From Escherichia phage MagusPhagus, in sequence record PP925836.1: a stretch of DNA of 54,396 nt, one strand, 5' to 3'. A program made the translations under genes and the position numbers. The stretch's first letter is position 1, and each line of letters begins with the position of its first letter. The notes below the pieces were generated by a model. That model saw nothing but the letters and a program-made list of their open reading frames with translations. It had not been told where the DNA came from and ran no database searches. Below, piece after piece: positions 53,606 through 54,396 of the stretch.

Positions 53606-53857
53606 TTAATGATAGCGGACTTTATCCAGGGGTTTTTCCCCTAAATGTCGTGGTTGCGTTGCGTGGTAGTAGCTGCCGCTTTCATTTTCCGTATACCATT
53701 TTACTGATCCTTTGCGACGTTCTTTAATGCTATTTGGTTTGCATCTTTCCTCGTTTGCAAATCGAATAGCTTTATCCACATTGTCTGTTTTATTGATTGC
53801 AGGTGATGATTTTCTTTCGTTTTCTCTTTTTATCCTTCTGCGTTCCCTGGCATTCAT
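53606..53857 (-). CDS. N-like transcription antiterminator (arginine-rich motif protein), start at ATG 53857
   Basis: ARM MNARERRRIKRENERK resembles the N-protein RNA-binding motifs of lambdoid phages; first gene after the PL-like promoter and leader. Confidence 0.5.
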   Translation of the reverse strand: MNARERRRIKRENERKSSPAINKTDNVDKAIRFANEERCKPNSIKERRKGSVKWYTENESGSYYHATQPRHLGEKPLDKVRYH

Positions 53858-54237
53858 TTTGCTATCACATTTACCATATATAATTGTAACGCTCATAATC
53901 TGATCTCCGTATATCCTTGATGATACTTAATAAAAAATCATCTTCGTTAATTGCCGCACTTCCAGCGGCTGACCAGATTGTTAATGAGCGGCTTAACATC
54001 TTTCAACTAATCCCGCAATCATCGCCGTTCCCGGCGTGACCTTGCTCACTCCAAGCAAGCTGACTCGTCGCCTTGCGTGCGGTTTCGTGGGGGATGTAAC
54101 GCTTTAAACACCCCATGCGCCTTGTTATCAGTGCCGCTTTCGGTCCCCAATCGGGGAGTTACTCCACGGTTGACAAGGTGTTAAGCCTGATTTTTAAAGT
54201 GCCAGGAAGTTGCTTTTGTTACCTGCGCCCTTCCTTT
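53858..54237 (-). promoter_or_regulatory. Leader of the leftward operon with a candidate nutL (boxA-like CGCTCATTAA plus boxB-like hairpin GCCGC-TGGAAGT-GCGGC)
   Basis: About 380-nt untranslated leader between the promoter and the N-like gene, read on the - strand; the boxA/boxB assignment is by resemblance only. Confidence 0.35.
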
Positions 54238-54239
54238 GA

Positions 54240-54280
54240 CTCGCAATATACGCCCCGTAAAACATCGAGTCAATCCATTT
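54240..54280 (-). promoter_or_regulatory. PL-like sigma70 promoter (-35 TTGACT, 17-bp spacer, -10 TATATT) embedded in an 8-bp inverted repeat TTGACTCG...CGAGTCAA (candidate operator)
   Basis: Read on the - strand around 54245-54273; one CCATTTTGTATAC motif abuts the -35. Confidence 0.55.
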
Positions 54281-54364
54281 TGTATACTTTTTTAAAATAT
54301 TTTATATGTCATTGATATTTAAATAATAAATAACGTTTTCTGTTTACGTTTTGGTGTTTTCCAG

Positions 54365-54396
54365 GCAAAGAAAAGCCGCCATTCGGCGGCTAATGT
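54365..54396 (-). terminator. Rho-independent terminator on the - strand at the window edge (would follow the repressor gene if the sequence is circular)
   Basis: Hairpin GCCGCC-GAATG-GCGGC followed by TTTTCTTT on the - strand. Confidence 0.5.

Follow-up and report, generated by a model that had tools for sequence, protein, structure and literature searches.

Sequence features of a predicted early control region in Escherichia phage MagusPhagus, with an N-like antiterminator gene and nut sites of the mEp021 type

Positions 53,606 to 54,396 of the DNA of Escherichia phage MagusPhagus (record PP925836.1, 54,396 nucleotides (nt), the whole of which is referred to as the window) had been described in an initial annotation as a leftward early control region, with a PL-like promoter inside an inverted repeat, a leader with a nut-like site, and an N-like protein with an arginine-rich motif (ARM). 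All of these features were recovered on the - strand at the given positions. Based on comparisons with related phages and prophages, this region very probably controls immediate-early transcription in a temperate coliphage that belongs to the mEpimmI group (type phage, mEp021). The designation as an early control region was thus retained, but the term leftward was not, since the published nomenclature calls this operon rightward (nutR1). The N/nut unit found here is already known, having been characterized in mEp021 and surveyed in 48 genomes (mEp021 and 47 relatives). In PMC11893012, which cites Valencia-Toxqui et al. 2023, Gp17 of mEp021 is presented as an experimentally shown N-lambda-like early antiterminator that acts at nutR1, which precedes gp17, at nutR2, and at nutL, which precedes the repressor gene. 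The same paper reports that the mEp phages of the group are Nus-dependent.

The relationship to the mEpimmI group was evident from nucleotide similarity, from synteny, and from the presence of the group repressor. The last 997 nt of the window aligned over their full length with mEp010, mEp515, and mEp021 at identities of 95.6%, 93.8%, and 92.5%, respectively, and all six sequenced mEp phages of the group were 92-96% identical over the region. Only approximately 76% of the 997-nt query was covered by mEp044, mEp554, and mEp013, which we read as a short form of the leader (see below). The gene order was the same in the annotated relatives mEp021 and mEp010, in both of which the ortholog of the repressor gene is annotated as repressor/cI. 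Elsewhere the relationship was looser: the structural half of the window showed a mosaic identity of approximately 85% to mEp phages, and only 34-48% of the first 25 kb could be aligned to the sequenced ones. For the comparisons below, 54 related loci (cited by handles such as L008 where they must be told apart) and the window were reduced to 42 distinct leaders, of which 33 were of the long form and nine of the short form.

Because the repressor gene has its stop codon at the window start, the region under study becomes its immediate downstream neighbor only when the window ends are joined. A lambda-like cI-PL-N arrangement split across the ends had been proposed on the condition that the sequence is circular. 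A junction query of 1957 nt (window positions 960 to 1 followed by 54396 to 53400, - strand) was searched against the complete E. coli genomes. E. coli 09-00049, whose prophage belongs to the 48-genome dataset (PMC11893012), was 100% identical to the query without interruption, and the junction was also contiguous in 34 further E. coli chromosomes at identities of 85.6-99.4%. In total, the window ends were joined in 35 E. coli prophages and six phage genomes; in mEp010 and mEp021, the repressor stop codon is directly followed by the terminator and the region under study. Furthermore, the linear phage records end at approximately 9.1 kb of the window, where the window is continuous, and run across the window junction. 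Since the junction is contiguous in the relatives and the window is continuous across the record ends, the window is a circular permutation of a complete genome of approximately 54 kb, cut at the end of the repressor gene. Therefore, the order repressor-terminator-promoter-nut-N is real, and joining the ends restored the proposed arrangement.

The open reading frame (ORF) after the leader encodes a protein of 96 amino acids (aa) that is 93% identical to mEp021 Gp17 (mEp021_17). The N-like ARM protein anticipated at this place was thus recovered, with the motif NARERRRIKRENERK and an assignment to PHROG 271. When family profiles were searched, a match to the N family (PHROG 271, Pfam PF25694) was obtained: PHROG 271, 'anti-termination protein N-like', matched residues 1-95 at E=1.3e-13, and lambda N matched the same PHROG at E=4e-23. 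The predicted ARM lies near the N terminus, and R17, R19, R20, R21, and R24 are all present in the window protein. In an alignment of 16 diverse homologs, R17, R20, and R24 were invariant, and R19 and R21 were kept in at least 90% of them; in the 48 genomes, R17, R19, R20, and R24 are fully conserved (PMC11893012). The gene was also found to be the first of an early operon of the repressor-controlled type, and a nut site is present both in its leader and in the divergent operon. An internal ATG, corresponding to the methionine of 'MNARERRR' at residue 14, was considered as the start and rejected; residue 14 is L, I, or A in relatives, and translation is therefore assigned to M1 (MSVTI...). Judged by these comparisons, the protein is a distant N relative of a narrow family, which comprised 31 clusters at an identity of at least 60%; no relatives of Gp17 were found in 185,579 species-representative genomes.

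A boxA-like motif and a hairpin with a GCCGC stem had both been noticed in the leader, and both held up: the motif CGCTCATTAA was an exact match at 53990-53981, and the hairpin folded as expected (Table 1). This nut site lies 57 to 94 nt before the gp17 start codon. Its boxA is near the consensus, and its short hairpin was kept as a structure among the relatives, in which the boxB stem at orthologous positions reads GCCGC/GCGGC, GCUAC/GUAGC (L008-L010), or UGCAC/GUGCA (L054). In L008-L010 (~1385-1431) and L054 (~1455-1503), the stem GCUAC or UGCAC is combined with the loop UGAAAU, and the protein carries the ARM NAR(K/A)RRRMKRAAEQ. The occurrence of a different boxB with a different ARM suggests a co-variation of protein and RNA specificity. 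Two further nut sites were found in the window, in which boxA and hairpin are separated by 2 nt, versus 3 nt at the site before gp17. The one at 813-845 lies between the repressor gene and the divergent operon, a position that fits the description in PMC11893012. In that paper, the closest likeness is noted between nutL and nutR2, with more variation in nutR1; the 14/17 boxA match at the gp17 site and the exact GCTCTTTAAAAATCCGG at the other two sites fit this published likeness.

The boxA of the window, CGCTCATTAACAA, agreed at 11 of 13 positions with TGCTCTTTAACAA of the short-form relatives. The boxA consensus is CGCTCTT(T)A or TGCTCTTTAACAA, and the short-form boxA, TGCTCTTTAACAATCTGG/TGCTCTTTAACAA, presumably matches the consensus of the E. 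coli rrn boxA. The setting is different: the rrn leaders have the order boxB-boxA-boxC and involve no phage protein, whereas the short-form boxA, which also reads TGCTCTTTAACAA, belongs to a phage nut site and has a protein-specific boxB hairpin downstream.

The repressor transcript is predicted to end at an intrinsic terminator, whose stem was invariant and whose loop was variable among relatives. This hairpin, annotated as TERM_1 in mEp021, is presumably the t1 listed among the experimentally demonstrated terminators (Fig. 7 legend, PMC11893012). An A/T-rich stretch follows, and the early promoter lies approximately 100 bp downstream of the terminator. The near-consensus promoter TTGACT/17 bp/TATATT proposed on the - strand withstood the comparison. 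It scored 10/12 in the promoter scan as the best promoter-like site in 53400-54396, and its -35 and -10 hexamers have a spacing within the 16-18 bp of sigma-70 promoters. Within the spacer, at least eight positions varied, but the two hexamers and the 17-bp spacing were the same in 41 of the 42 distinct leaders. Transcription is predicted to start at ~54237-54240 (- strand), and the site is thus taken as a predicted PL-like early promoter of the sigma-70 type. The promoter, the boxA and boxB elements, and the protein are well beyond chance in view of their conservation, the covariation, and the recurring nut architecture.

Several results weigh against the assignment to an N/nut unit of the lambda kind. 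The Pfam N_peptide score of the protein was 15.9 bits versus a cut-off of 27.9, with sub-threshold matches to N_peptide in 14 of 16 family members. A profile search of the PDB sequences with the protein family gave no match, and with hhalign, lambda N could be aligned only over 11 residues around a shared WY, with a probability of 2%; direct homology to lambda N, which was considered, is thus not supported by either search. In addition, the boxB stem of one locus (L033) carries a mismatch, and no lambda-style operators were evident in the region, in which no set of three tandem 17-bp operators lies over the promoter.

Table 1. Features of the early control region and of related elements in the window (positions are those of the window)
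Feature	Position	Strand	Description and basis
cI-like repressor gene	1..648	-	helix-turn-helix (HTH) and S24 peptidase; Pfam HTH_3 E=5e-13, Peptidase_S24 E=4e-19
Intrinsic terminator of repressor transcript	54364..54391	-	stem AGCCGCC/GGCGGCT 54391-54374, 4-nt loop, then TTTCTTT; terminator scan
14-mer GTATACAAAATGGA	54274..54287	-	directly upstream of -35; candidate regulatory/operator site
Sigma-70-type early promoter (predicted)	54245..54273	-	-35 TTGACT 54273-54268, 17-bp spacer, -10 TATATT 54250-54245
8-bp inverted repeat TTGACTCG/CGAGTCAA	54236..54273	.	arms 54273-54266 and 54243-54236; frames the promoter
Second boxA-like element GCACTTTAAAAATCAGG	54186..54202	-	5' edge of module; 15/17 identical to GCTCTTTAAAAATCCGG
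198-nt leader module	53990..54187	-	predicted closed multi-branch RNA domain, closing helix GGCUUAACA/UGUUAAGCC
Internal module hairpin	54041..54059	-	CUUGCU-UGGAGUG-AGCAAG; compensatory changes in one lineage
boxA of nut site before gp17 (published nutR1)	53973..53990	-	CGCTCATTAACAATCTGG; 14/17 identical to GCTCTTTAAAAATCCGG
boxB hairpin	53953..53969	-	GCCGC-UGGAAGU-GCGGC; predicted fold -10.1 kcal/mol; 3 nt after boxA
A/U-rich hairpin	53919..53942	-	GAUGAU...AUCAUC, between boxB and ribosome-binding site; predicted in whole-leader fold
gp17 ortholog, 96-aa N-like protein	53606..53896	-	ARM NARERRRIKRENERK at residues 15-29; Shine-Dalgarno GGAG 53908-53905, 8 nt upstream
39-aa Kil-like ORF	53456..53575	-	Pfam Lambda_Kil E=2e-4, below cut-off; PHROG 34942 E=7e-31; PHROG 2055 E=1.4e-3
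ERF recombinase	53456-52815	-	Pfam ERF E=4e-42
SSB	52815-52399	-	Pfam SSB E=2e-23
Second nut site (published nutL)	813..845	+	boxA GCTCTTTAAAAATCCGG and hairpin UCGCU-GCGA-AGCGA; sequence and fold
Third nut site (published nutR2)	46517..46549	-	identical 17-nt boxA GCTCTTTAAAAATCCGG and hairpin GCGC-UGAAAU-GCGU
Promoter-like site before third nut site	46592-46565	-	TTGTTA-16-TATACT; promoter scan; flanked by two 14-mer copies
14-mer sites (starts)	344, 721, 3768, 12781, 21105, 21174, 24398, 24426, 28075, 40296, 46566, 46633, 54274		

The operators of the group were not identified in PMC11893012. In the window, the 8-bp inverted repeat that frames the early promoter had been put forward as a plausible operator. 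The repeat is indeed exact and spans from the -35 element to approximately +1, and a repressor dimer bound to it would occlude the -35 element and the start site, as at lambda OL; it was perfect in roughly 25 of the 41 distinct homoimmune leaders. However, we consider it unlikely that TTGACTCG/CGAGTCAA is the repressor operator. Perfect 8-bp repeats with a gap of 3-40 nt occurred at chance frequency: the 997 nt contained one, dinucleotide shuffles contained 0.73 on average, and 43% of the shuffles had at least one; the whole window had 1.25 per kb. The left arm owes five of its eight bases simply to the -35 hexamer, and in ~16 of the 41 homoimmune leaders (about a third) the unchanged -35 is faced by CGAATCAA, CGAGGCAA, or CGAGCAAA with no compensation. 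Imperfect repeats (CGAATCAA or other variants) were found in both mEp021 and mEp010, and the mEp021 repressor blocks both of these phages, the group being treated as one immunity group (PMC11893012). Moreover, the motif was absent from the repressor/divergent-operon control region (649-954) and from the third promoter region (46550-46700), whereas lambda-type operators are common to OL and OR. With 30 bp between the arm centers, the repeat is much wider than the sites usually bound by helix-turn-helix dimers. The repeat thus stands as a sequence feature, but its role as a lambda-type operator is not supported, as it is at chance level, not conserved, and not shared.

The 14-mer GTATACAAAATGGA (reverse complement TCCATTTTGTATAC), which abuts the -35 element of the same promoter, is a better operator candidate on the grounds of its distribution and conservation. 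With up to two mismatches, it was found at 13 window sites versus 0.56 expected, and none of 100 shuffles reached 13. Although 88% of the window is coding, approximately 10 of the 13 fall between genes: nine lie outside long ORFs, and the tenth (721-734) lies only in a doubtful ORF. Three inverted pairs were present (24398/24426, 21105/21174, and 46566/46633). As the sole sequence common to the three early control regions, a 12-mer family, TCCATTTTGTAWACTT, was recovered, with GTATACAAAATGGA as its 14-nt core. Among the relatives, GTATACAAAATG was invariant in 41 of the 42 distinct leaders, and the copy at 721-734 was largely conserved.

We speculated that the repressor, or another phage regulator, may recognize the asymmetric TCCATTTTGTAWAC(TT) and exert a dispersed control like that of the P1 C1 operators or the mycobacteriophage stoperators. 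The chance of this being right is, in our estimate, appreciable and somewhat short of even. Besides the excess of sites, their mostly intergenic position, the inverted pairs, and the conservation, it is favored by the placement of TCCATTTTGTAWAC, which abuts the -35 at the gp17 promoter and recurs at other operon boundaries; at 721-734 and 46566-46579, it overlaps the putative -10s of the divergent early promoter and the promoter that precedes the third nut site, respectively. However, the orientation of the 14-mer relative to transcription varies by site, the pair spacing ranges over 28-69 bp, and the element might alternatively serve as a promoter or UP-like element, as a host-factor site, or as a conserved module-boundary sequence used in recombination. 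The operator reading is further weakened by the fact that the count was made in the window, the first 25 kb of which align only in part to the sequenced mEp phages. TCCATTTTGTAWAC, rather than a lambda-style operator, may be the means by which the repressor controls the genome.

Two other sites with promoter-like sequences were seen near copies of the 14-mer. A weak one, TTGATC-16-TAAACT at 708-735 (+), scored 8/12, which is below the scan threshold, and its -10 lies inside the 14-mer; the nut site at 813-845 follows after approximately 80 nt, and the divergent (replication) operon may have its PR-like promoter here. The other belongs to the stretch 46517-46660 (- strand), where the nut site that directly follows the promoter-like sequence has a 17-nt boxA identical to that at 813-829; this stretch resembles a further promoter-nut cassette, complete in itself, within the early operon.

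The leader measures approximately 342 nt from the predicted start to the ATG. The length of approximately 380 nt given at first is reached only when counting from the -35 element. The leader is structured, as had been stated; however, the structured part is an optional 198-nt module upstream of the nut site, not the nut site itself. In the short form, seen in nine distinct leaders, boxA TGCTCTTTAACAATCTGG follows approximately 50 nt after the predicted start. In the long form, to which the window and the phages mEp021, mEp010, and mEp515 belong, a second boxA-like element, GCACTTTAAAAATCAGG, and the 198-nt segment precede boxA; GCACTTTAAAAATCAGG was found only in long-form leaders.

The predicted fold of the module had a minimum free energy (MFE) of -76.5 kcal/mol and was significantly more stable than those of shuffled sequences (z = -3.84; whole leader, z = -3.75). 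Among the 33 distinct long-form sequences, the nucleotide diversity of the module was 0.0175. For comparison, the diversity at third codon positions was 0.157 in the repressor gene and 0.141 in gp17, and that of the nut site was 0.083. The module diversity was thus 8-9-fold lower than that of the neighboring third codon positions, and it was also below that of first codon positions. The module occurred in 31 of 5426 E. coli genomes and in three phage records (mEp only), once per genome, and eleven matches in metagenomes all had the same context. A 22-mer of the module had no match in the 185,579 species-representative genomes. No credible Rfam family was found for the whole window at gathering thresholds or for 53850-54396 at permissive E-values; the best permissive matches were at chance level (E~1), and an isrK match covered only the terminator hairpin. 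A search of the rest of the window for sequences that the module could target as an antisense RNA gave only 10-15-mers at chance level. A miniature inverted-repeat transposable element was also considered, as the module has terminal inverted repeats and is optional; it was rejected because each genome has a single copy and no copies were found outside this prophage group. In one of the eleven metagenome matches (contig OQVL01004386.1, L061, 6780-7300), the sequence leaves the leader in the middle of boxB and enters a gene fragment that by eye appears to be of an unrelated ATPase/chelatase type, probably as a result of chimeric assembly.

We tentatively propose that the module (54187-53990) has a function as a structured RNA domain within the early transcript of some members of the group, for instance as a processing or stability element, as a regulator of boxA access, or as the source of a released small RNA; we hold this to be possible rather than probable. 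In addition to the stability of the predicted fold and the near invariance relative to the neighboring codon positions, the proposal is favored by one helix with three compensatory pairs: in L008-L010, the hairpin at 54059-54041 reads ATCACT...AGTGGT, with three pairs changed on both sides and one more changed to a wobble pair. The few other changes are wobble-compatible or in loops, the loops include GGAA and GAAA, which by inspection are GNRA-type tetraloops, and the module sits exactly between two boxA-like elements. However, since the module is nearly invariant, there are few variants, and the covariation support is therefore thin, with the three compensatory pairs all coming from one lineage. 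The low diversity could also stem from a recent spread by recombination, or a role at the DNA level might be possible. Neither an Rfam family nor, within the window, a complementary target was found for the module. Furthermore, the module is dispensable, because the sister phages mEp044, mEp554, and mEp013 and the nine distinct short-form leaders do without it.

In being a structured RNA in a phage early-operon leader downstream of the early promoter, the module resembles the HK022 put RNA and other cis-acting leader RNAs. It differs from the put RNA in that it matched only mEp phages (in a distant-mode phage search), is present alongside a complete N/nut system, and can be dispensed with. The module may represent a type of phage leader RNA that has not been described before and that could control the timing or mode of antitermination-complex assembly, or it may be processed to a small RNA, e.g., for host interaction; we regard this idea as rather unlikely.

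Instead of RNA, the leader might encode small proteins, such as mEp021_16 (37 aa, window 54116-54003) and mEp010_20 to mEp010_22. ORFs of 34-66 aa are present on both strands, and gene callers have annotated them in the deposited genomes: the mEp021 and mEp010 annotations contain three to four small hypothetical coding sequences in the leader, on both strands (L001 2784-2897; L002 2583-3006). Nevertheless, we find it very improbable that they are translated genes. The 37-aa ORF had no family match, is absent from the short-form phages, and lies in a segment that is nearly invariant at all positions with no coding signature. In a divergent lineage, nine nucleotide changes keep the RNA hairpin but would replace six residues, mostly non-conservatively; coding is therefore unlikely. 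The RefSeq annotation of 35 prophages has no gene in the leader, and the small coding sequences are likely over-predictions.

Two secondary structures between boxA and gp17 were also noted. The A/U-rich hairpin between boxB and the ribosome-binding site is absent from the type-B relatives L008-L010 and L054. A 9-bp pairing of AAUCUGGUC in the boxA-boxB spacer with GAUCAGAUU in the spacer between the Shine-Dalgarno sequence and the ATG was seen in the MFE fold; the variants in the relatives were not compensated, and it was not relied on. Such a pairing (53897-53980, -) would enclose boxB next to the Shine-Dalgarno sequence, which recalls the autoregulation of the lambda N leader.

Downstream of gp17, the operon continues in the order kil-like ORF, erf, ssb, and further genes. 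Based on lambda and on the mEp021 work, the region would operate as follows. The repressor transcript would stop at the terminator, and in the lysogen the repressor would keep the early promoter off. When repression is lifted, RNA polymerase would start at the conserved promoter and transcribe boxA and boxB. Gp17 made from the same RNA would bind boxB through its arginine-rich motif and, together with the Nus factors at boxA, would render the polymerase terminator-resistant. The modified polymerase would then read through the kil-like ORF, erf, ssb, and further genes. The anatomy and the conservation were observed here, while the RNA binding, the Nus dependence, and the read-through are assumed from the ortholog work and from lambda.

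Compared with mEp021, the Gp17/nutR1-nutR2-nutL unit has the same order (repressor, terminator, leader, gp17, kil-like, erf, ssb), with three nut sites at the described positions; the DNA is 92.5% and the protein 93% identical, and nothing of substance differs in the protein and the nut site. The layout is also like the cI-(rex)-PL/OL-nutL-N arrangement of lambda, in that the repressor gene is transcribed towards the early promoter, the first operon gene encodes a small ARM antiterminator, a nut site with boxA and boxB lies in the leader and another in the divergent early operon, and a kil-like gene lies in the N operon. However, only the family profile revealed a similarity to lambda N. The ARM begins at residue 15, while it is at the N terminus in lambda N, and there are three nut sites versus two in lambda. 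In the 342-nt leader, the nut site is placed at the 3' end, whereas lambda nutL is near the 5' end of its leader; the lambda N leader is approximately 220 nt long. By inspection, the boxB loops (UGGAAGU, UGAAAU, and UGCGAA) look like GNRA tetraloops closed by a U-N pair, whereas lambda boxB has a GAAGA/GAAAA pentaloop. In contrast to lambda, there are neither three tandem 17-bp operators over the promoter nor rex genes between the repressor gene and the promoter.

Taken together, reading of the sequence alone recovered a real N/nut antitermination unit. This unit has already been characterized in mEp021 and covered by the 48-genome survey, and therefore no new biology is added by it. The promoter, the operators, and the optional 198-nt module are not described in the accessible literature on the mEp021 group; the module and the dispersed 14-mer, as the sole parts that were not found described, provide a modest lead. 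Two questions are thereby raised for this group of phages: how the group repressor recognizes its promoters, where a dispersed asymmetric motif is evident rather than lambda-style operators, and why most members keep a strongly conserved, structured 198-nt insert between the early promoter and the nut site, while sister phages do without it.

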